Of a stretch of 64,000 nt of DNA, positions 45,038-55,324 are shown piece by piece; positions within the stretch are counted from its first letter, which is position 1, and every line of letters starts with the position of its first letter. Made by a program: the position numbers and the translations under genes. Under the pieces are notes generated by a model, which did not search any database, was not told the origin of the DNA, and saw nothing but the letters and a program-made list of their open reading frames with translations. This stretch comes from Alphaproteobacteria bacterium (lineage in GTDB: Bacteria > Pseudomonadota > Alphaproteobacteria > Micavibrionales > SZUA-601): positions 648,765-712,764 of the forward strand of contig OZ244156.1 in NCBI GenBank assembly GCA_965216395.1, written 5' to 3'.

Positions 45038-46042
45038 GTGTCTGTGTCAACTGCAAAAGAAAAAGTAAGCGTTTTGCCAAATAAGCAAGAAGCACTCAAA
45101 ATGTATAAAGATATGCTTGAAATTCGTCGTTTTGAAGAAAAGGCAGGGCAGCTTTACGGCATGGGTCAAATCGCTGGTTTCTGTCACCTTTATATTGGTC
45201 AAGAGGCTGTCGTTGTCGGTATGCAATCTGTTCAAGATAAAAATGACACGGTTATTACAACCTATCGTGACCATGGGCATATGTTGGCCTGTGATATGGA
45301 CCCTAAGGGTGTGATGGCGGAATTAACGGGACGCATTGACGGTTATTCCAAGGGTAAAGGCGGGTCGATGCATATGTTTTCGAAAGAGAAAAACTTTTAT
45401 GGTGGCCATGGGATCGTTGGCGCTTGTGTTCCCTTGGGAACGGGTTTAGCTTTCACGCATAAATATAATAATGATGGTCAAATTAATCTTTGTTACTTCG
45501 GTGATGGTGCCTCCAATCAGGGGCAGGTTTATGAGGCCTTTAACATGGCCAAGCTTTGGAATTTGCCAGTTCTTTATATTATTGAAAACAATAATTATGC
45601 GATGGGTACATCAACTAAACGTCACCGCGCGGGTGAGCTTTACAAGCGTGGCGAAGGGTATGATATTCCTGGCAAAAAAGTTGATGGTATGGATATTTTA
45701 AAAGTCCGAGAAGCGGCCATAGAAGCAATTGATTATGTGCGTTCAGGTAAGGGGCCTTATTTGTTAGAGGTTGAAACCTATCGTTATCGTGGCCACTCTA
45801 TGTCTGATCCGGCAAAATATCGTACTAAAGACGAAGTGAATGAGATGAAATCTCAACGTGATCCGATTAGCAATTTTCAAACATGGCTGATTGATAATAA
45901 TATGGCCAGCGAAGAAGAATTGAAACAAATTGATAAAGACATTAAGGCATTGATGAAAGATGTGGCCGAATTTGCTACGAATTCACCATTACCCGATGCG
46001 TCCGAACTTTGGACGGATGTTTTAATTGAGACGAAGGCTTAA
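45038..46042 (+). CDS. pdhA: Pyruvate dehydrogenase E1 component subunit alpha
   Basis: 334 aa with a GTG start after a GGAGG SD. TPP-binding GDGASNQG...NN motif and [11 protein letters not shown]. Confidence 0.94.
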
Positions 46043-46053
46043 GGAGAGAGAAA

Positions 46054-47442
46054 ATGACGATTAAAATTCTTATGCCAGCACTCAGCCCCACCATGACCGA
46101 AGGTAATCTTGCGCGCTGGGTTAAAAAAGAAGGTGATACCATTGAATCGGGTGATGTGATTGCTGAAATTGAAACGGATAAAGCCACAATGGAAGTTGAG
46201 GCTGTTGATGACGGTGTTTTAGGTAAAATCCTTATTCCAGAGGGAAGCGAAAACATCGCTGTGAATACGCCGATTGCGGTTTTACTGGAGGAGGGCGAAA
46301 CAGCCGATGATATTGGTGAGATTGACACCAATATTCAATCACAGTCCCGCCCATTGGAAAACCCGACCACGTCACAACCGATTGAAAATATTCCGTGTGT
46401 TCCGCCCGCTGTGGCGCCGACGACACAACCCGTTTCTATACCTGAACCCTCTTATGGTGAAACTCAATCCATGACGGTGCGTGAAGCTTTGCGGGACGCT
46501 ATGGCAGAAGAAATGCGTCAAGACGAAACCATTTACATTATGGGTGAAGAAGTTGCGGAATACCAAGGTGCGTATAAAGTCACTCAAGGGTTGCATGATG
46601 AATTTGGTGATAAACGTGTGATTGATACACCAATTACGGAACACGGTTTCGCTGGAATTGCCGTGGGATCAGCCTTTAACGGTTTGAAACCGATTTGTGA
46701 ATTTATGACCTTTAACTTTTCGATGCAAGCGATTGACCAAATCGTCAATTCTGCCGCCAAAACGCTTTATATGTCGGGTGGGCAATTGGGATGTCCGATT
46801 GTTTTCCGTGGCCCAAATGGCGCAGCATCCCGTGTCGGGGCACAACATTCCCAAGATTTCGCCAGTTGGTATGCTCATATTCCAGGCCTTAAAGTGATAT
46901 CACCATGGTCAGGTGCGGACTGTAAAGGGCTTTTAAAGGCTGCTATTCGTGACCCAAACCCCGTTGTCTTTTTAGAAAATGAATTGATGTATGGCCAAAG
47001 TTTTGAAGTGCCGGTCTCGCAAAATTTCGTTCTTCCTATTGGTAAGGCAAAAATTGAGCGCGCGGGCACGGATGTCACTATTACGGCTTATTCCATTATG
47101 GTAGGTAAAGCTTTACAAGCGGCTGAAAAATTAGCTGAGCAAGGGATCTCGGCGGAAGTGATTAACTTACGCACGATCCGCCCATTGGATGTCCATACAA
47201 TTGTTGAATCGGTTAAAAAGACTAATCGATGGGTCAATGCTGAAGAATGTTGGCCACAACATGGGATTGGTTCAGAAATGGCGGCGATTGCGATGGAACA
47301 TTGTTTTGATTATTTGGATGCACCAGTGAAACGCGTTCATCAGAAAAATGTGCCTTTGCCCTATGCTGAAAATTTAGAGAAAATAGCGTTGCCACAAGTC
47401 GATGATATAATCAATGCGTGTAAAGAAGTGTGTTATAAATAG
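46054..47442 (+). CDS. pdhB: Pyruvate dehydrogenase E1 component subunit beta with N-terminal lipoyl domain
   Basis: N-terminal lipoyl domain ([14 protein letters not shown]), Pro/Thr-rich linker, then the E1-beta transketolase-like core. 462 aa. Confidence 0.94.
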
Positions 47443-47940
47443 ATGAATTCCCTATCAAAAATTCAACATGATCCCAATACTCTGGCACAGCCATATTGTG
47501 CGGCTTATGTCTTTTTGAAAAAAGAAGATAAGTATTTTTTCTTGCGTAGAGTTAATACAGGATATCATGATGGACTTTATGGTGTTCCTGCGGGAAAACT
47601 AGATGTTGGTGAAACTATTTATGATTGTGCTATTCGTGAAGCAAAGGAAGAGGCTGGTGTAACTGTCAGCAGGGATGATTTAACGTTTCTAGGGACAGCT
47701 CAACGGTTTGACCCAACATCAAGTAAATATCCTCATTGGATAGATTTTTTCTTTTCTGCGGAAGTTTGGGAGGGAACAGCACAAAATATGGAGGCCGATA
47801 AAGCAGATGACTTTGGATGGTTTACGCTTGATGAATTGAAAGGAAAAGTTGCTCCTAATCAATATGATGCGATCTTAAACGTTGAAACAGAAAAAGTTCT
47901 TATTCAACATGAAAACGAAAATGGAATAAAACATGACTGA
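47443..47940 (+). CDS. Nudix hydrolase
   Basis: Perfect Nudix box G-x5-E-x7-REAKEEAGV (GKLDVGETIYDCAIREAKEEAGV). 165 aa. Its ATG directly abuts the pdhB stop. AT-rich. Confidence 0.85.
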   Translation: MNSLSKIQHDPNTLAQPYCAAYVFLKKEDKYFFLRRVNTGYHDGLYGVPAGKLDVGETIYDCAIREAKEEAGVTVSRDDLTFLGTAQRFDPTSSKYPHWIDFFFSAEVWEGTAQNMEADKADDFGWFTLDELKGKVAPNQYDAILNVETEKVLIQHENENGIKHD

Positions 47941-48241
47941 TGAAGGCTTTGATATAAAATTAACTGAGAGACAGCAGAACATTCTCCTTATTTTAAAAGA
48001 AGGAGACAAGACTGGTGCTGAAATTATAAAATCCTATAAACAGAATTATAATAAAGTAATATTATTAGGTAGTGTTTACTCAGACTGTAAGCATATGATG
48101 CAAAATGGCCTTGTTAAAAAACATACTCCATCGACAGAAAATAGAGAGAAATATACCCTAGATGAAAACGGTAAAAAGATAACTGATCAAATTCAATTAA
48201 ATATGCAAACTAATAATGGTTTAATCCAACTTGTTTTTTAA
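47933..48241 (+). CDS. Small winged-helix DNA-binding protein (PadR/MarR-like)
   Basis: 102 aa. LTERQQNILLILKEGDKTGAEII...GSVYSDCKHMMQNGLVKK...YTLDENGKK matches the helix-turn-helix plus wing pattern of PadR-like proteins. 8-nt overlap with the Nudix gene. Very AT-rich. Confidence 0.5.
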   Translation: MTDEGFDIKLTERQQNILLILKEGDKTGAEIIKSYKQNYNKVILLGSVYSDCKHMMQNGLVKKHTPSTENREKYTLDENGKKITDQIQLNMQTNNGLIQLVF

Positions 48242-48260
48242 AAAATTAGGTGAATAAAAC

Positions 48261-49568
48261 ATGCCAACAAAAATTTTAATGCCCGCTTTAAGCCCCACCA
48301 TGACCGAAGGCAACCTTGCCAAATGGTCCATTAAAGAGGGCGACACCATTACTTCTGGCGATGTGATTGCCGAAATTGAGACGGATAAGGCCACGATGGA
48401 ATTTGAAGCCGTGGATGAAGGGGTATTGGCCAAAATCATTATCCCAGAAGGTACCGAAAATGTGCCTGTAAACGCCATGATCGGTGTTTTGTTAGAAGAG
48501 GGTGAAGAAGACGCCGATATTGATTCTTTTATCGCTGCGAATAAGGACGAACCAAAGCCGCAAGCGAATAATCCTACTGCGACAGCGCCAACTCCAACGC
48601 CACCACCGACTACTGCGACACCTGCACCGATGGCAACACCAACACCTGTGGCGCAATCTGGTGGACATCAAGATCGTGTCTTTATTTCACCTTTGGCACG
48701 TCGTCTGGCCGCGCAACATGGTATACAAATTGTTATCCCAGGATCGGGGCCCAATGGCCGTATCATTAAGGCCGATATTGATCGGTTGATTGCTTCGGGT
48801 GACAATACGCAACTTATTAACGCACCACAGAAAAAGAAAGGCCCATCTGCTAGTGAATTGGCCGATATGTTGGGGATTAAGTATATTCGAGAGAAAGTGT
48901 CTAATGTTCGTAAGACCATTGCAGGGCGCCTGAGCGAATCAAAACAAGAAGTGCCACATTTCTATTTAACCGTTGCATGTAATATTGATGCCCTCTTAAG
49001 CGCACGTAAGGCACTTAACACCAAAGGGGATGGTGCTTATAAAGTATCCGTTAATGACTATATTATTAAAGCCTGCGCGCTTGCCTTGAAAAAAGTGCCA
49101 GAGGCGAATACGTCTTGGAATGAAGATAGTATACTCACCTATGAACATGCCGATATTTCTGTGGCCGTGGCAACCGATAACGGCCTGATCACGCCAATTG
49201 TCGCCAAGGCAGAAGAAAAAGATTTGGTCACAATTTCTGATGAAATGAAAGATTTGGCCACACGGGCTAAGGCTGGTAAATTAAAACCAACCGAATTCCA
49301 AGGGGGGAGTTTCTCGCTTTCTAATTTAGGGATGTTTGGGATTAAGGAATTTTCAGCAATTATTAATCCACCGCAATCGTGTATTTTGGCCGTTGGTGCC
49401 GGAACGCCAACGCCCATCGTCAAAGATGGAGAGATTGTTATCGGCACGATAATGCATTGTACGCTTTCTGTGGATCATCGCTCCGTTGATGGCGCTGTGG
49501 GTGCCCAATTCCTGGCTGCCTTTAAAGAATTTATTGAAAGCCCAGAATTGATGGACGCATCATCATGA
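48261..49568 (+). CDS. pdhC: Pyruvate dehydrogenase complex dihydrolipoamide acetyltransferase (E2)
   Basis: Lipoyl domain, P/T/A linker, E3-binding domain ([14 protein letters not shown]) and catalytic domain ([10 protein letters not shown]). Confidence 0.95.
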
Positions 49569-49882
49569 CAAAAACCGTTGATCGCTCACCCTTAGTTGAT
49601 TTCCGTGATCGTCTGGATGAAATTGATGATCAAATCATGGCACTTTTTGCCAAACGTTACCGTGTGCGCGATGAAACGATGCCGGTTAAACGTATGCATG
49701 ACATGCCTATTATTGTACAATCACGTGTGGATGAAGTGATTAACCGCGCTATTAAAAATGCTGAAGAATTGGACGTTCCAGCTGATTTTGCGCGTGCGTT
49801 ATATAAATTGGTTATTGATTACTCGCACCAATATGAAGAAGAATTTTATTCTCATCTAACCAAAAAAGAAGAGATTGTTTAG
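49565..49882 (+). CDS. Chorismate mutase-like (AroQ class) small protein
   Basis: 105 aa. [22 protein letters not shown] resembles the AroQ helix-1 motif (R..ID.ID..I..LL..R). ATGA overlap with pdhC. Confidence 0.5.
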
Positions 49883-50419
49883 ATGAAAATAGGGATTGTT
49901 TCAGATAGCCATGAACACACGGATAATATTAAGAAAACACTGTCTTACCTTGAAGAGTTTGGCTGTGAAGCTCTGATTTTCTGTGGTGATTTTTGTGCGC
50001 CTGGCACAGGCGCGCTTTTAGCAGAATTTAAAGGACCTAAACATTTTATTTTTGGCAATAATGATGGGGATCAATATAATTTGGCGCGTGTCGTTGCAGA
50101 AACGGCTACCGATGTTCATTGGTATGGTGAAAGTAAGGGGTCCGTTGAAATTGATGATATAAAGATCTTTATGACGCATTATCCGATTTATGCACGCCAT
50201 GCCGCTAAATCAGGCGAATATGACTTGGTATGTTTCGGTCACGACCATAAAGCACGTATTGAAGAATATGATACATGTTTGGCTGTAAACGCTGGATGTT
50301 TAAATCCGATGAAAATACGTGGTGATAAACCACCAAGCTATGCTATTTATGATACGAATACACGTAAAGCGACAATTTATGATTTAGAGAACACTATTTT
50401 AGCAGAAAAGAGTTTATAA
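49883..50419 (+). CDS. YfcE/MJ0936-family metallophosphoesterase
   Basis: IGIVSDSHEH, CGDF, GNNDGD and GHDH motifs of calcineurin-like phosphoesterases. 178 aa. Abuts neighbours on both sides. Confidence 0.8.
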   Translation: MKIGIVSDSHEHTDNIKKTLSYLEEFGCEALIFCGDFCAPGTGALLAEFKGPKHFIFGNNDGDQYNLARVVAETATDVHWYGESKGSVEIDDIKIFMTHYPIYARHAAKSGEYDLVCFGHDHKARIEEYDTCLAVNAGCLNPMKIRGDKPPSYAIYDTNTRKATIYDLENTILAEKSL

Positions 50420-50420
50420 A

Positions 50421-51821
50421 ATGAGTGAAACGCAATTTGATTTGATCGTTGTTGGTGGCGGGCCAGGAGGTTATGTTGCCGCCATTCGTGGTGCACAATT
50501 GGGTATGAATGTGGCCGTTGTAGAACGCGAGCATATGGGCGGTATTTGCCTCAATTGGGGATGTATACCAACCAAGGCTCTGCTTCGTTCTTCTGAAATT
50601 AATCACCTTATGCACAATGCGGAAGATTATGGATTTAAAATCAGTGAGATAGAGTTTGATTTTAACAAAATAATTGAACGTTCACGCGCGGTATCGAAAC
50701 AACTTTCTTCTGGTGTGACGCATCTGATGAAAAAAAATAAAATCCCCATATTTGATGCACATGCCGCCCTTGATGGGCCTGGTAAATTGGTTCTCTCAAA
50801 CGGCAAAGATGCGGGCAAAACACTCACCGCACCGCATATTATCTTGGCCACGGGTGCACGCGCCCGTCAACTTCCCGGTTTAGAGGCCGATGAAAAACTG
50901 ATCTGGACGTACAAAAAAGCGATGACACCTGATCAAATGCCAAAAAGTTTGTTGGTTGTTGGTTCAGGTGCGATTGGTTCTGAATTTGCGTCATTTTATC
51001 AAAATATGGGCGTTAATGTTACTTTGGTGGAAGTGGTTGACCGTATTTTACCCGTTGAAGACGCCGAAATATCGGCTTTTGTGCAAAAATCCTTTGAAAA
51101 AGACGGTATGACGGTTTTAACCAATGCCATGGTTAAAGCGCTTGATAAGGGCGAAGACGAAGTGACCGCCACGATTGAACAAAATGGCGAACAAACTCAA
51201 CATAGATTTGATCGCGTGATTATGGCCGTGGGTATTGTGGGCAATTCCGATAATATCGGCTTGGAAACCACAAAGGTACAAACAGATCGTGGGCATATTG
51301 TCACGGATGGCTATGGCCGAACAAATGAACCAGGGATATATGCGATTGGTGATGTCACTGGTGCGCCATGGTTGGCGCATAAAGCATCGCATGAAGGTGT
51401 CATTTGTGTTGAAAAAATTGCCAACCATCCGAATGTTCATCCGATGAAAAAAGAAAATATTCCCGGATGTACTTATTGCCGGCCACAGGTTGCCAGTGTT
51501 GGTTTAACAGCCGAAAAAGCCCAAGCGCTGGGTCATCGTGTTAAGGTGGGTAAATTCCCCTTTATGGCCAATGGAAAGGCGATTGCCTTGGGCGAACCGG
51601 AAGGATTTATTAAAACCGTTTTTGATGAAAAAACAGGTGAACTTTTGGGCGCCCATATGGTCGGCGCGGAAGTGACCGAACTCATCCAAGGCTATACGAT
51701 CGCCAAAACCAATGAATTAACCGAGTCCGAATTGATGCACACCGTCTTCCCACATCCGACACTGTCGGAAATGATGCACGAAGCCGTTCTCGATGCCTAT
51801 GGCAAAGTAATTCATTTTTAA
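50421..51821 (+). CDS. lpdA: Dihydrolipoyl dehydrogenase (E3)
   Basis: GGGPGGY FAD motif, redox-active CLNWGCIPTK and C-terminal HPTLSE. Confidence 0.96.
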   Translation: MSETQFDLIVVGGGPGGYVAAIRGAQLGMNVAVVEREHMGGICLNWGCIPTKALLRSSEINHLMHNAEDYGFKISEIEFDFNKIIERSRAVSKQLSSGVTHLMKKNKIPIFDAHAALDGPGKLVLSNGKDAGKTLTAPHIILATGARARQLPGLEADEKLIWTYKKAMTPDQMPKSLLVVGSGAIGSEFASFYQNMGVNVTLVEVVDRILPVEDAEISAFVQKSFEKDGMTVLTNAMVKALDKGEDEVTATIEQNGEQTQHRFDRVIMAVGIVGNSDNIGLETTKVQTDRGHIVTDGYGRTNEPGIYAIGDVTGAPWLAHKASHEGVICVEKIANHPNVHPMKKENIPGCTYCRPQVASVGLTAEKAQALGHRVKVGKFPFMANGKAIALGEPEGFIKTVFDEKTGELLGAHMVGAEVTELIQGYTIAKTNELTESELMHTVFPHPTLSEMMHEAVLDAYGKVIHF

Positions 51822-51841
51822 TATTAACTAATAAATATTAA

Positions 51842-51870
51842 TTGACATAGTACTAGATTATCTTTATTTA
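51842..51870 (+). promoter_or_regulatory. Putative sigma70 promoter of small orphan S1 (TTGACA-N17-TATTTA)
   Basis: Perfect -35 at 51842-51847, 17-nt spacer, -10 at 51865-51870. GGAG SD before the ATG at 51900. Confidence 0.5.
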
Positions 51871-51899
51871 TAACAATATAAGTTTATGGAGATAATAAT

Positions 51900-52202
51900 A
51901 TGTCAAATGAACAAACTGTTAAAGAATTTTATGTTTTAGCTTTATTAGCTGAAAACAAGGGGGATACATTATTCCTTAAAGAAAAATATGATTCTAGTTC
52001 AGGTCTATATTTTTGGTCTTTAAGCAAGTGGAGTGAAAAGAATTCTGTTAAAGAATTTACGACTAAATCTGAAGTAAATGATATGAAAAGACAGATGAAA
52101 AAAAACTTTACCTTGTTTGGTGAATGTGAACAATCCGAAGAAGAAAAGTTAAAACAAATTAGATCTTTAAAAATAAAAACTGTGACAATATCTGTTTCTT
52201 AA
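51900..52202 (+). CDS. Small orphan protein S1 (100 aa), paralog of the 53154..53438 ORF
   Basis: Has an SD and a consensus promoter. Shares MSN..., (Y/H)VLALL(A/N)ENK, L(F/Y)LK and the C-terminal I..L.(I/V)...(I/L)S(V/L) with the second ORF. AT-rich. Confidence 0.6.
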   Translation: MSNEQTVKEFYVLALLAENKGDTLFLKEKYDSSSGLYFWSLSKWSEKNSVKEFTTKSEVNDMKRQMKKNFTLFGECEQSEEEKLKQIRSLKIKTVTISVS

Positions 52203-52229
52203 GAACAAATACACATATTTTATAAATAT

Positions 52230-53027
52230 CTACCGAAACAGCACCAAACTAAGGGCGAGGGCGGCCATACCAAGGACGAGACCGTAAACAGGCTCATGCC
52301 CTTTGGAATAACGTTTGGCGGCGGGCAGGAGTTCATCCACGGCCAAAAACACCATCGCACCCGCAATCACGGCGAAAACAGCCCCATAAATAAAAGGTGA
52401 AAGGTAAGGTGCCAATACCAAATACCCAATCAAGGCGCCAACAGGTTCAGCCAAGGCTGATAATAGACAAGCAAAAAAAGCTTTTCTACGACTGCCCGTG
52501 GCATAATAAACCGGAATGGCGATCGAAACGCCTTCGGGGATATTATGAATTGCAATCGCGACGGCCAATGGCGCCCCAACAACCGGGTTATCTAAGGTGG
52601 CAAAAAATGTTGCCAAGCCTTCAGGGAAATTATGTGCGGTAATGGCGAGAGCCGCCATTAAACCAATGCGCCCAACATGTTTTTTATTGACTATTTCTTC
52701 TTCGGTTAAATTCGCGTGTGGATTGGGGATAAAACGATCTAAAACGACCAACAAGGTTACACCGATAAAAAAGAATAAAGTCGCATAACCATAGGCGAAT
52801 TGATCACCATAAATATCCAAAAACGCAATATGTGATTTATTAAATATTTCCACCAAAGACACATAAACCATGGCACCGCCTGCAAAAGCAAGACCGAATG
52901 ACAAAAGCCGCGCATTATCCCGGTTCACGGGATAAACAACCGCTAAGGCGCCTAATAATGTTGCCATCGCCGCTCCCATACAAACAGCAAAAGCCAATAA
53001 TACCTCATGTGAAAAAATCATATCCAT
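52230..53027 (-). CDS. zupT: ZIP-family zinc transporter ZupT
   Basis: 265 aa, polytopic. HNFPEGLA and HNIPEG motifs. Confidence 0.9.
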   Translation of the reverse strand: MDMIFSHEVLLAFAVCMGAAMATLLGALAVVYPVNRDNARLLSFGLAFAGGAMVYVSLVEIFNKSHIAFLDIYGDQFAYGYATLFFFIGVTLLVVLDRFIPNPHANLTEEEIVNKKHVGRIGLMAALAITAHNFPEGLATFFATLDNPVVGAPLAVAIAIHNIPEGVSIAIPVYYATGSRRKAFFACLLSALAEPVGALIGYLVLAPYLSPFIYGAVFAVIAGAMVFLAVDELLPAAKRYSKGHEPVYGLVLGMAALALSLVLFR

Positions 53028-53073
53028 AAAAATACTCTAACAGTGTTTCAAAAAAGCGCCAAGGGGTCAAATC

Positions 53074-53097
53074 ACATATTGACATATTGACATATTG
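53074..53097. repeat. Perfect 3 x 8-bp tandem repeat (ACATATTG)3 in the zupT / S2 divergent intergenic region
   Basis: Read directly: ACATATTG ACATATTG ACATATTG. It generates two overlapping TTGACA hexamers at 53079-53084 and 53087-53092. Confidence 0.9.
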
Positions 53098-53115
53098 CTA
53101 TATTTGCTTTATTCA
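53087..53115 (+). promoter_or_regulatory. Putative sigma70 promoter of small orphan S2 (TTGACA-N17-TATTCA)
   Basis: The second TTGACA of the tandem repeat, a 17-nt spacer, then TATTCA at 53110-53115. Confidence 0.4.
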
Positions 53116-53153
53116 GGGTATGAATAAAGTTTAATATATTGGTAAAAAAAACT

Positions 53154-53438
53154 ATGTCTAACACTCAAAAAAATCATGTTCTTGCTTTGCTAAATGAAAA
53201 TAAGCCATCACTGTATTTAAAAGCAGTCAATGCCGGACCAGATAACGATGCTTATGATTTAACTAAGGACAAAAATGATCAAAATATAGTTTATTTTGAG
53301 GATTACATGGAAGCGAGCAGTTTTAGGAAAAAAGTTTTAGAAAGCAAAACAATATTTTACAAGGGAATTTTAGATAGAGAAAGATATAGTGACGAAATTA
53401 TCGGCCTCAATGTAATAGATACTTCACTTTCTCTCTAA
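53154..53438 (+). CDS. Small orphan protein S2 (94 aa), paralog of 51900..52202
   Basis: The ATG at 53154 ([17 protein letters not shown]) is preferred over the tracked TTG at 53139 because it aligns with the S1 N-terminus. AT-rich. Confidence 0.55.
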
Positions 53439-53461
53439 AACATTCTAAGATACCGTCCATT

Positions 53462-54487
53462 ATGACGATTGATCAGCAAAGCCCACCAGAATTAAAAATT
53501 ATCCAACCCCAGGGTAAGGAGAATATGGACGTGTCCGCCCGTTTAAGCGGTTCAAAAGAACGCCATCCAGAAAAGGCGCATAAGCCAGACAACCCTGTAC
53601 AACGCAAAAAACCGTCATGGATTCGTGCAAAATCGCCAACCTCTGAAGGGTATTTTAAAACCAAAGGGATTTTAAAAAATTTGGGTTTAACAACCGTCTG
53701 TGAAGAAGCAGCATGTCCGAATATTGGCGAATGTTGGAAGCAACAACATGCCACAATGATGATTATGGGCGATACCTGTACCCGCGCGTGTTCTTTTTGT
53801 AACATCGCCACCGGTAAGCCGGAAGATTTAGACCCCTTTGAACCCCAACGTGTTGCCGTGGCCGTGATGGAGCTGGGCTTAAAACATGTGGTGATCACCT
53901 CTGTTGATCGCGATGATATCCCCGATGGTGGCGCGGCGCATTTTGTCAAAACCATTGAACGTATTAAAGCCATGGCGCCCAATACAACCGTGGAAATTCT
54001 GACCCCCGACTTTCTGCGTAAAGAAAGTTCGATTGATTTGGTGGCACGCGCTAAACCCGATGTTTTTAATCATAATTTAGAGACCGTACCACGCCTTTAT
54101 CCAACAATTCGTCCAGGATCACGTTATTTTTCTTCGCTGCGCCTCTTGCAACGTGTCAAAGAAGTTGAGCCAGAGACCTTTACTAAGTCAGGGATTATGG
54201 TCGGATTGGGCGAAAGCAAAGAAGAAGTCATTCAAGTCATGAATGATATGCGCGCGGCCGATATTGATTTTCTGACCATTGGACAGTATTTACAACCATC
54301 GCCTAAACATGCTGCGGTGGAACGTTTTGTTACTCCTGAAGAATTTGAAACCTATGAAAAAATTGCCCGTGGTAAGGGATTTCTTATGGTTTCGGCCACA
54401 CCGATGACCCGTTCTAGTTATCACGCAGGCGATGATTTTGAACGGTTGCGCGCTGCCCGTATGGCAAAATTTAATGCGGCTGAATAA
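53462..54487 (+). CDS. lipA: Lipoyl synthase
   Basis: [13 protein letters not shown] and radical-[12 protein letters not shown] cluster motifs. 341 aa. Confidence 0.96.
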
Positions 54488-54505: not shown

Positions 54506-55324
54506 ATGAAATATTTTTTGAGCGTTTTAAGTCTTTTACTTTTAACGATAAATTTCGCTTATGCTGATATTGGACAAGTGGCACAGCGTGTTTTAGATAG
54601 TGGGACTATCCGTTGTGGTTATGCGATGTCTCCCCCAGCGATTGAAAAAGACCCATTAAGCGACGCAATGCTCGGCCCCATTCCCGAAGTTATGGAGGAA
54701 ATTGGCAAGACTTTGGGCCTAAAAATTGAATGGACGGAAGAAACCGGATGGGGCAACTTTATCGAAGGATTACGCGCCAACCGTTATGACGCTTTTTGCG
54801 CGGGCATGTGGCCCGATGGCCCCCGGATGAAATTTCTTTCACTCACCCAACCTTTTGTGTACAACGTCATGTATGGCTATGTCCGTATTGATGACAACCG
54901 CTTTGATGGCAATATTGACGCCATGAACAGTCCAGATGTCATATTTCCTGTGGTTGAAGGGGATGTTACCGTATCCATTGTCAATGATATGTTTCCCAAG
55001 GCAAAAAAACTACCCCTGCAACAAATTTCAACTGTGTCAGATATGATGTTATCTGTAGCCACGGGTAAAGCGGATGTGGCCACTTTAACGCCTGAGATTT
55101 TTAAAAGTTTTGATCAAAATAATCCCGGCAAGCTTCGCGTGGTTAAAAATATTCCACCTTTACAATATAAAGGAGCCACTATTGGCGTAAAAGCTGGGGA
55201 ATATCATCTGCGTGATATGTTAGATCAAGCCATTAATATCTTACGCGATGATGGGACATTAGCGCGGATTTTAGCAAAACATTCAAAAAGCTATATTGCG
55301 CCACGGCAGGGATTTATCAATTAG
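54506..55324 (+). CDS. Periplasmic substrate-binding protein, SBP family 3-like, orphan (no adjacent permease or ATPase)
   Basis: Signal peptide (MKYFLSVLSLLLLTINFAYA). Bilobed SBP_bac_3-like pattern (IRCGY..., RYDAFCAGMW...). 272 aa. Confidence 0.6.
   Translation: MKYFLSVLSLLLLTINFAYADIGQVAQRVLDSGTIRCGYAMSPPAIEKDPLSDAMLGPIPEVMEEIGKTLGLKIEWTEETGWGNFIEGLRANRYDAFCAGMWPDGPRMKFLSLTQPFVYNVMYGYVRIDDNRFDGNIDAMNSPDVIFPVVEGDVTVSIVNDMFPKAKKLPLQQISTVSDMMLSVATGKADVATLTPEIFKSFDQNNPGKLRVVKNIPPLQYKGATIGVKAGEYHLRDMLDQAINILRDDGTLARILAKHSKSYIAPRQGFIN

Follow-up and report, generated by a model that had tools for sequence, protein, structure and literature searches.

Two small genes at the lpdA-lipA junction

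The stretch analysed here (hereafter the window) comprises 64,000 nucleotides (nt; 64 kb) of contig OZ244156.1 of the alphaproteobacterial assembly GCA_965216395.1, a genome hereafter referred to as W. In this window, the junction between lpdA and lipA is filled by an accessory island in which two short open reading frames (ORFs), A and B, lie on either side of zupT, a gene read from the opposite strand. A sequence-only reading of the window had placed the two ORFs on either side of zupT between lpdA and lipA, and had regarded their products as divergent paralogous orphans; both ORFs were found at these positions, on the + strand. Names beginning with L083 denote ORFs at the corresponding locus of an uncultured close relative, and 'the family' denotes A, B, L083_135, L083_104b and L083_111. 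The genes of the junction are as follows:

50421-51821, + strand: lpdA, the upstream border of the island
51822..53461, no strand assigned: accessory island of 1.64 kb (A, zupT, B), which fills the lpdA-lipA junction
51888..51891, + strand: Shine-Dalgarno sequence GGAG, 8 nt 5′ of the ATG of ORF A, as read from the sequence
51900..52202, + strand: ORF A, 100 residues, a family member and the positional counterpart of L083_135
52230..53027, - strand: zupT, encoding a ZIP-family metal importer of 265 residues, convergent with A and divergent from B
53154..53438, + strand: ORF B, 94 residues from its ATG, a family member whose nearest relative is L083_104b
53462-54487, + strand: lipA, 3′ of ORF B

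Inspection of the two ORFs confirmed the MSN start, the (Y/H)VLALL(A/N)ENK...L(F/Y)LK block, the similar length and the low guanine-plus-cytosine (GC) content that had been described as common to them. The GC contents of ORF A and ORF B are 0.27 and 0.31, respectively, as compared with 0.45-0.46 for lpdA, zupT and lipA and 0.388 (38.8%) for the window; zupT (GC 0.46) has host-like codon usage, and its L083 orthologue carries the Pfam Zip domain. The GGAG sequence preceding A is also found 5′ of L083_135, L083_104a (an ORF considered below) and L083_104b. An ATGTC start is aligned across all four units that are headed by the promoter-like element described below (two in the window and two in L083), and the TTG at 53139 is an improbable start codon for ORF B. 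The stop codons of A and zupT are separated by 27 nt in the window and 12 nt in L083, and the 27 nt contain no terminator-like structure. The divergent zupT-B intergenic region spans 126 base pairs (bp; 53028-53153), and no terminator was found in the 23-nt gap between B and lipA (fold z-score, -0.27). Within ORF A, a 14-nt exact direct repeat, CTGTTAAAGAATTT, occurs at 51916-51929 and 52045-52058 and encodes (T/S)VKEF twice.

The paralogy of A and B proved to be true but very old. The two proteins are 27% identical, and BLASTP reported their N-terminal 27 residues alone (56% identity; expectation value (E) = 5e-4). In the pairwise shuffle test, which had been set beforehand as the check on this similarity, the similarity was significant: the Smith-Waterman score was 58, as compared with 27.3 ± 5.0 over 5000 shuffles (z = 6.1; reached by 1 of the 5000), and semi-global alignment gave z = 7.1, which no shuffle of 5000 reached. 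After removal of the N-terminal block, the sequences aligned colinearly and without gaps (z ~2.6, p ~0.02). L083_104b matches A (5e-7) as well as B (5e-6), its alignment with B having z = 8.3; L083_111 matches A at 1e-4, and L083_135 has the N-terminal motif in common with A and B. The shuffle scores and the link through L083_104b thus bear out the divergent paralogy that had been proposed.

The five family sequences align colinearly, with conserved hydrophobic core positions and with invariant M1, L15, N19, L24, L41 and F53. Their signature starts with MS(N/D)... and Y-V-L-A-L-L-x-E-N-K-turn-T-L-Y-L-K and continues with a Y-x-L strand, the invariant Phe and two helices before ending in a C-terminal strand; L083_135 carries a 10-residue insertion exactly at the predicted hairpin turn. 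We searched a hidden Markov model (HMM) of the five members against 27,052 six-frame ORFs from the window and 164 loci (2.17 Mb). It retrieved exactly those five ORFs with E <= 1e-28 (1.5e-41 for A and 1e-33 for B), the next match having E = 7. Copy number differs between the two genomes, with one unit on each side of zupT in W as compared with 1 + 3 ORFs in L083.

L083_104a (L083 6745-7116) was rejected as a member. It has the promoter and the MSD start in common with the family, and a start context identical to the family's, but no similarity to the family could be detected in its 104-residue body (z below 0). The ORF is either a family member that has diverged too far to be recognised or a chimera built on the 5′ end of the family.

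On sequence grounds, A and B are intact, selectively maintained protein-coding genes. The open frame spans 106 codons in the ORF A interval, as compared with 50 ± 12 when that sequence is shuffled (p = 0.002), and 104 codons in the ORF B interval, as compared with 55 ± 14 (p = 0.006). Their other frames contain 6-14 stops, the exception being one minus-strand frame of A with a single stop. The in-frame codon usage of A and B fits a model of the long genes of the window as well as that of lpdA and lipA does, and the fit is much poorer in the two shifted frames. Although their nucleotide divergence is ~50%, none of the five homologous ORFs in the two genomes has been disrupted. When neutral substitution was simulated to the observed nucleotide divergence, with indels ignored, the frame stayed open in 0.02% of cases for A (2e-4) and in 0.1% for B (1e-3). 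As the frames of A and B survive where neutral drift would break them, selection keeps them open despite their fast change.

These data bear on the possibility that A and B are non-functional, chance or decaying frames in AT-rich spacers left by the zupT insertion, only the promoters being of importance, for instance for lipA. The low GC content (0.27-0.31), the lack of database-scale homologues, the loss of the dispensable island in L081 (see below), the missing Shine-Dalgarno sequence of B and the better conservation of the promoter and 5′ end than of the ORF bodies are in line with it. However, open frames of ~105 codons are very unlikely at this composition, nearly all the other frames are interrupted by 6-14 stops, in-frame codon usage is the same as in housekeeping genes, and five homologues have stayed intact with colinear conservation of their core hydrophobic positions. 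We consider this explanation very improbable.

In a word-indexed search of 5.8 billion proteins, A and B each matched itself only, on a single contig of 1,649,955 bp, and when 1.84 billion representatives were scanned exhaustively by HMMER with an A+B profile, A and B alone were returned. Significance at this library scale misses relatives at <=35% identity, such as the L083 members, and the family may be wider. Neither protein had a family match above noise in Pfam, NCBIfam or PHROGs, a sequence-profile search of the PDB gave no match, and Rfam, searched on both strands, gave no RNA family. PADLOC gave a single sub-threshold match, that of A to PycTM (E = 0.0066, 14 bits); for the four remaining members there was none. 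A tblastn search against phages and plasmids returned nothing, and a metagenome scan anchored on ZupT yielded ZupT proteins alone, none above 69% identity and none with a family member close by. When viral contigs were scanned for the motif, two matches came up, both inside GC-rich ORFs (190 and 380 residues); we discarded them as chance matches. A and B thus appear to be orphans at database scale, with the family recognised in two genomes only. The term 'orphan' holds at that scale and not for confinement to this genome, as three members flank zupT in L083.

Promoter-like elements, island history and rate of change

Each of the two ORFs has its own promoter-like element, and further repeats lie upstream of B:

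51842..51870, + strand: promoter-like element of ORF A, TTGACATA-N15-TATTTA, with a TTGACA -35 box, a 17-nt spacer and a weak -10 box
53087..53115, + strand: promoter-like element of ORF B, TTGACATA-N15-TATTCA, identical to that of A at 23/28 positions
53074..53104, + strand: 8-bp tandem repeat ACATATTG in three copies, which duplicates the -35 box of the promoter of B
53107..53129, + strand: perfect 9-bp inverted repeat CTTTATTCA-N5-TGAATAAAG, which overlaps the -10 box of B (RNA fold z = -2.7)

There are two copies of the composite element TTGACATA-N15-TATyyA in the 64-kb window, as compared with 0.03 expected, and no shuffle reached two. Two further copies are present in L083, 5′ of L083_135 and L083_104a, and none in 167 other loci; the total is four in ~2.2 Mb, each heading a small-ORF unit. 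In an alignment of the four upstream regions, TTGACATA, TTTAT and the ATGTC start are invariant. A blastn comparison of W and L083 showed ~78% DNA identity from lpdA through the element of A to position 51915, 16 nt into ORF A, and the promoter and 5′ end are better conserved between these genomes than the ORF bodies. Such conservation of the composite element argues for its function. The consensus promoters claimed by the sequence-only reading hold with respect to the TTGACA -35 box, the 17-nt spacer and the presence of a separate element for each ORF. They do not hold for the -10 boxes, TATTTA and TATTCA, which agree with the consensus at 3/6 positions, and a consensus scan did not call the elements because the -10 box lacks the final T.

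We considered the TTGACATA element as an ancestral lipA promoter that had been duplicated by the insertion, and rejected this origin; the element is absent from the island-free spacers of two other relatives, L081 and L084, and therefore belongs to the family unit. The three copies of ACATATTG create two overlapping TTGACA boxes 5′ of ORF B. An operator function of this array was also rejected, as L083 has a single copy; being unconserved, the array most likely reflects recent slippage that doubled the -35 box. The inverted repeat CTTTATTCA-N5-TGAATAAAG, which is absent from L083, could be an operator or a 5′ hairpin.

The arrangement of the island may affect the genes around it. Because there is no terminator between B and lipA and because the inverted zupT splits lipA from pdh-lpdA, the element of B probably serves lipA as well, and would restore the transcription of lipA that is cut off from the pdh-lpdA operon. 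The inserted inverted gene may thus have forced lipA to gain a new promoter. A TATACT box is located 10-13 nt 5′ of the lipA ATG in L081 (7905-7935) and L084 (9965-9987). The pre-lipA box is TATATAAC in L083 (7785-7810) and is degraded to AGATACCG in the 23-nt spacer of the window (53439-53461), a state that fits a dependence of lipA on read-through from the promoter of B. As the 27-nt convergent gap between A and zupT has no terminator, some transcriptional interference by transcription of A converging on zupT is also possible.

We compared the junction among relatives. In distant alphaproteobacterial loci fetched through LipA (L002, L008, L011, L022, L025, L028, L039 and L042), lpdA and lipA are immediate neighbours, some 5-100 nt apart, and the fetched flanks (up to 10 kb) contained no match to ZupT. 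An LpdA search identified three close relatives, with LpdA identities of 91%, 89% (L083) and 88%. The sister of W, L081 (GCA_964496065.1), has lpdA, a 125-nt spacer and lipA, with no island, and the basal L084 has no island and an unrelated 174-residue ORF, with no Pfam match, between lpdA and lipA. L083 has the layout of the window, namely lpdA, a 135-residue ORF (+), Zip (-), ORFs of 104, 104 and 111 residues (+) and lipA. A neighbour-joining tree of 1382 concatenated columns from PdhC, LpdA, NUDIX, CM_2 and Metallophos had the form (((W,L081),L083),L084), with 95% bootstrap for each of the two nested clades. The simplest history compatible with these sequences would be a single gain of the island before W, L081 and L083 split, after which L081 lost it cleanly. 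The absence of the island from L081 indicates that the island, zupT included, is dispensable. These genomes offer a natural experiment, with two copies in one close genome, three or four in one and none in two. Farther away, a KAP NTPase follows lpdA in L165 (LpdA 73%), and a PDDEXK_3 protein with other genes follows it in L166 (LpdA 73%). As its cargo differs among relatives, the lpdA-lipA junction is a variable hot spot.

The family changes much faster than the genes around it. Between W and L083, LpdA is 89% identical, ZupT 86% and the LipA N-terminus 86%, whereas A and L083_135 are 34-36% identical and B and L083_104b 31-33%. The family shows a nonsynonymous divergence (dN) of 0.70-0.74 between the two genomes, as compared with 0.08-0.10 for LpdA, ZupT and LipA (0.095 for ZupT) and 0.16-0.31 for accessory neighbours; the family evolves 7-9 times faster than its neighbours.

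From these comparisons, A and B constitute, at the level of sequence, a new orphan family, one of small genes that are taxonomically restricted and sit in a flexible hot spot. They resemble other orphan small-protein families of flexible islets in lacking homologues outside a narrow clade, in being short, AT-rich and fast-evolving, in varying in copy number by local duplication, and in occupying a dispensable island at a junction with differing cargo. In contrast to those families, each A/B unit has a promoter element of its own that is conserved, and more strongly so than the protein. The units also do not form a simple tandem array but enclose a conserved transporter gene of housekeeping type, and mobile-element genes are absent. 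What emerges is a well-documented orphan family and no new mechanism.

Predicted fold and possible roles

Neither A nor B has a transmembrane or signal-like stretch (maximum 19-residue hydropathy, 0.45), and the Cys/His counts are 1/0 in A, 0/1 in B and 0-1 in L083_104b. The earlier remark that the two proteins lack metal-binding, signal and transmembrane motifs is therefore correct, and no Cys, His, Asp or Glu ligands are conserved across the five members. The isoelectric points (pI) of the family range from 4.8 to 8.6, 4/5 members being acidic to neutral (pI 4.8-6.1). AlphaFold2, run on the two-sequence alignment of A and B, gave best predicted local distance difference test (pLDDT) scores of 75.8 for A and 69.3 for B, with a predicted template-modelling (TM) score of 0.62 for both. 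The strand and helix order is b-b-b-a-a-a-b in the model of A, and the order common to A and B is b-b-b-a-a-b: a meander of three beta-strands comes first, helices follow, and a strand closes the C-terminus. A beta-hairpin is placed at the YVLALLxEN motif in both. We infer that the family consists of soluble, non-enzymatic alpha/beta proteins.

A structure search of BFVD gave a best E of 6e-3 and TM scores of 0.5-0.65, below significance, for uncharacterised small phage proteins. These proteins (W5RV10 of Staphylococcus phage SEP9 and A0A8S5UFD7) are like A and B in size and in their predicted beta-meander-plus-helix arrangement, but E is at least 6e-3, identity is 11-17%, the query model is moderate, and there is no PHROGs match. 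No function can be transferred from them, because they themselves lack known function. If expressed, A and B would represent a new small-protein family without a sequence relative or structural match in the libraries searched.

The YVLALLxEN motif presumably resembles helix 1 of PadR or HTH_36-type domains, a resemblance that we used as a lead only. On that basis, the family might be a degenerate winged-helix DNA-binder, with the motif as helix 1, that acts at the divergent zupT promoter. In the viral-contig protein L168, RERYVLALLAENANDG occurs in what seems to be such a context, a PadR-like ORF (orf102, 47933-48241) lies nearby, and B is divergent from zupT. Against this, A and B have no match to helix-turn-helix families in Pfam, NCBIfam or PDB sequences even at E up to 10, and L168 scores only 9 bits with the family HMM, all of them within the motif. 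In addition, AlphaFold2 predicts a beta-hairpin at the motif in both proteins, the residues after the turn (T-L-Y-L-K and Y-L-F-L-T) are strand-like, and 4/5 members have a pI of 4.8-6.1. We give the winged-helix assignment almost no credence.

Our preferred reading, to which we assign a probability of about 0.6, is that A and B belong to a clade-restricted, selectively kept, fast-diverging family of small soluble partner-binding proteins, carried in a dispensable island around an inverted zupT. Each unit of this family combines the ORF with a promoter-like element of its own and, in most cases, a GGAG ribosome-binding site; such units occur on both sides of zupT. As only the core hydrophobics and the hairpin turn are conserved, the proteins are probably non-enzymatic binders. 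They would most likely work by binding a partner, with surfaces that change quickly, and a dispensable adaptive or conflict-type accessory role would fit them better than zinc handling.

Several observations weigh against this reading. Four of the five AlphaFold2 models of A have a pLDDT of 36-54, so that the prediction is of only moderate confidence, and the agreement in topology between A and B is not independent, because both predictions used the same two-sequence alignment. The dN/dS ratios (about 0.3-0.65) are only indicative, as the synonymous divergence (dS) is saturated (above 1.2), and the positional 'orthologues' of A and B in L083 could be older paralogues. ORF B has no Shine-Dalgarno sequence, only an A-rich leader, and among the -10 hexamers of the elements (TATTTA, TATTCA and TATCCA) those of A and B match at only 3/6 positions. 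A partner-binding or conflict role finds no PADLOC or PHROGs match and no adjacent toxin, nuclease or mobile gene, and the family flanks zupT in both island-bearing genomes.

The last of these points raises the question of whether A and B are zinc-homeostasis accessories that modulate ZupT or respond to zinc, as a regulator, a chaperone or a zinc-sparing factor. Besides flanking zupT in both genomes, the family has one gene, B, divergent from zupT over a shared 126 bp and another, A, converging on it without a terminator. Like the genes of Zur-regulon accessories (ZinT, COG0523 GTPases and the Cys-less L31/L33/L36/S14), A and B are small genes next to a zinc-uptake gene, and B is divergent from it. 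However, A and B have no sequence similarity to those accessories, no metal ligands and no Zur box, and they change far faster than the transporter. Searches of Pfam and NCBIfam showed no similarity to ZinT, COG0523 or ribosomal-protein paralogues, or to any other family, and the invariant residues are Leu, Asn and Phe rather than Cys, His, Asp or Glu. We searched 53028-53153 for a Zur box with the E. coli-type motif (PMC6103462), which is not alphaproteobacterial, and found no match with up to 3 mismatches. Window-wide, this motif gave 31 matches, as compared with 25.9 ± 6.9 expected, none of them in the zupT-B region, and a comparison with L083 showed no conserved palindrome there. For a dedicated partner, the family also varies far too much in copy number and sequence, the transporter itself being 86% conserved. 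The zupT adjacency is sufficiently explained by a single island shared by common descent. The sequences thus offer no evidence of a zinc link, and the zinc-accessory role appears improbable to us. This case cautions against inferring function from adjacency, the link to zupT being best explained by shared descent of the island and not by zinc biology.

The sequence-only reading had suggested a small regulatory, immunity or effector-like family; none of the libraries for phage, defence and regulator families matched A or B. A partner-binding family could also be a component of a conflict system, that is, immunity-, anti-defence- or effector-like proteins under diversifying selection in a defence or accessory hot spot. 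The very high dN, the differing copy number, the clean gain and loss of the island and the cargo of the same junction in more distant relatives (a KAP NTPase in L165, a PDDEXK_3 protein in L166) would suit such a role, as would the fact that the sole structural likeness, although weak, is to small phage proteins in BFVD. On the other side, those BFVD matches are below significance, PADLOC and PHROGs returned no match, and dN/dS is below 1, though with saturated dS. The neighbours of A and B are lpdA, zupT and lipA; the only companion is zupT, and the surroundings hold neither a cognate toxin nor a nuclease, secretion or mobile-element gene. No integrase, transposase or att-like repeats were found. 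A conflict system of this kind is unlikely, if worth keeping in view. Quite unlikely, and more speculative, is a broader proposal in which A and B would represent a new fold and a family of rapidly diversifying partner-binders (e.g. immunity, anti-defence or host-interaction) that spreads as a promoter-plus-ORF module duplicable on either side of a resident gene, with the lpdA-lipA junction as a dedicated cargo hot spot.

Other insertions in the pdh cluster and beyond lipA

The sequence-only reading had called the pdh-lpdA-lipA neighbourhood otherwise conserved. This view was not upheld: the neighbourhood contains variable single-gene insertions, and the A-zupT-B island is missing in the sister L081. 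This textbook cluster acts as an insertion hot spot in the lineage.

Within the clade, the pdhA-pdhB-pdhC-lpdA cluster (window 45038-51821) carries genome-specific single-gene insertions at its gene junctions. L084 has a tautomerase gene between pdhA and pdhB and a 135-residue ORF, with no Pfam match, after pdhC, and L081 has a GNAT acetyltransferase gene between CM_2 and Metallophos. In W, orf102 (47933-48241, + strand), a PadR-like winged-helix ORF of 102 residues with a GC content of 0.29, lies between the NUDIX gene and pdhC; it scores E = 2e-7 with PadR and 23.0 bits with the FUR family (cut-off, 23.1), and is found in W only, not in L081, L083, L084 or L165. These insertions look like a lineage-wide pattern of same-strand insertion within the operon.

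On the other side of lipA, a gene for an SBP_bac_3-type solute-binding protein (54506-55324, + strand) is located between lipA and an SRPBCC/polyketide-cyclase-like gene. It is also present in L081, and most distant relatives have the SRPBCC gene directly 3′ of lipA; the SBP_bac_3 gene is another clade-specific insertion.

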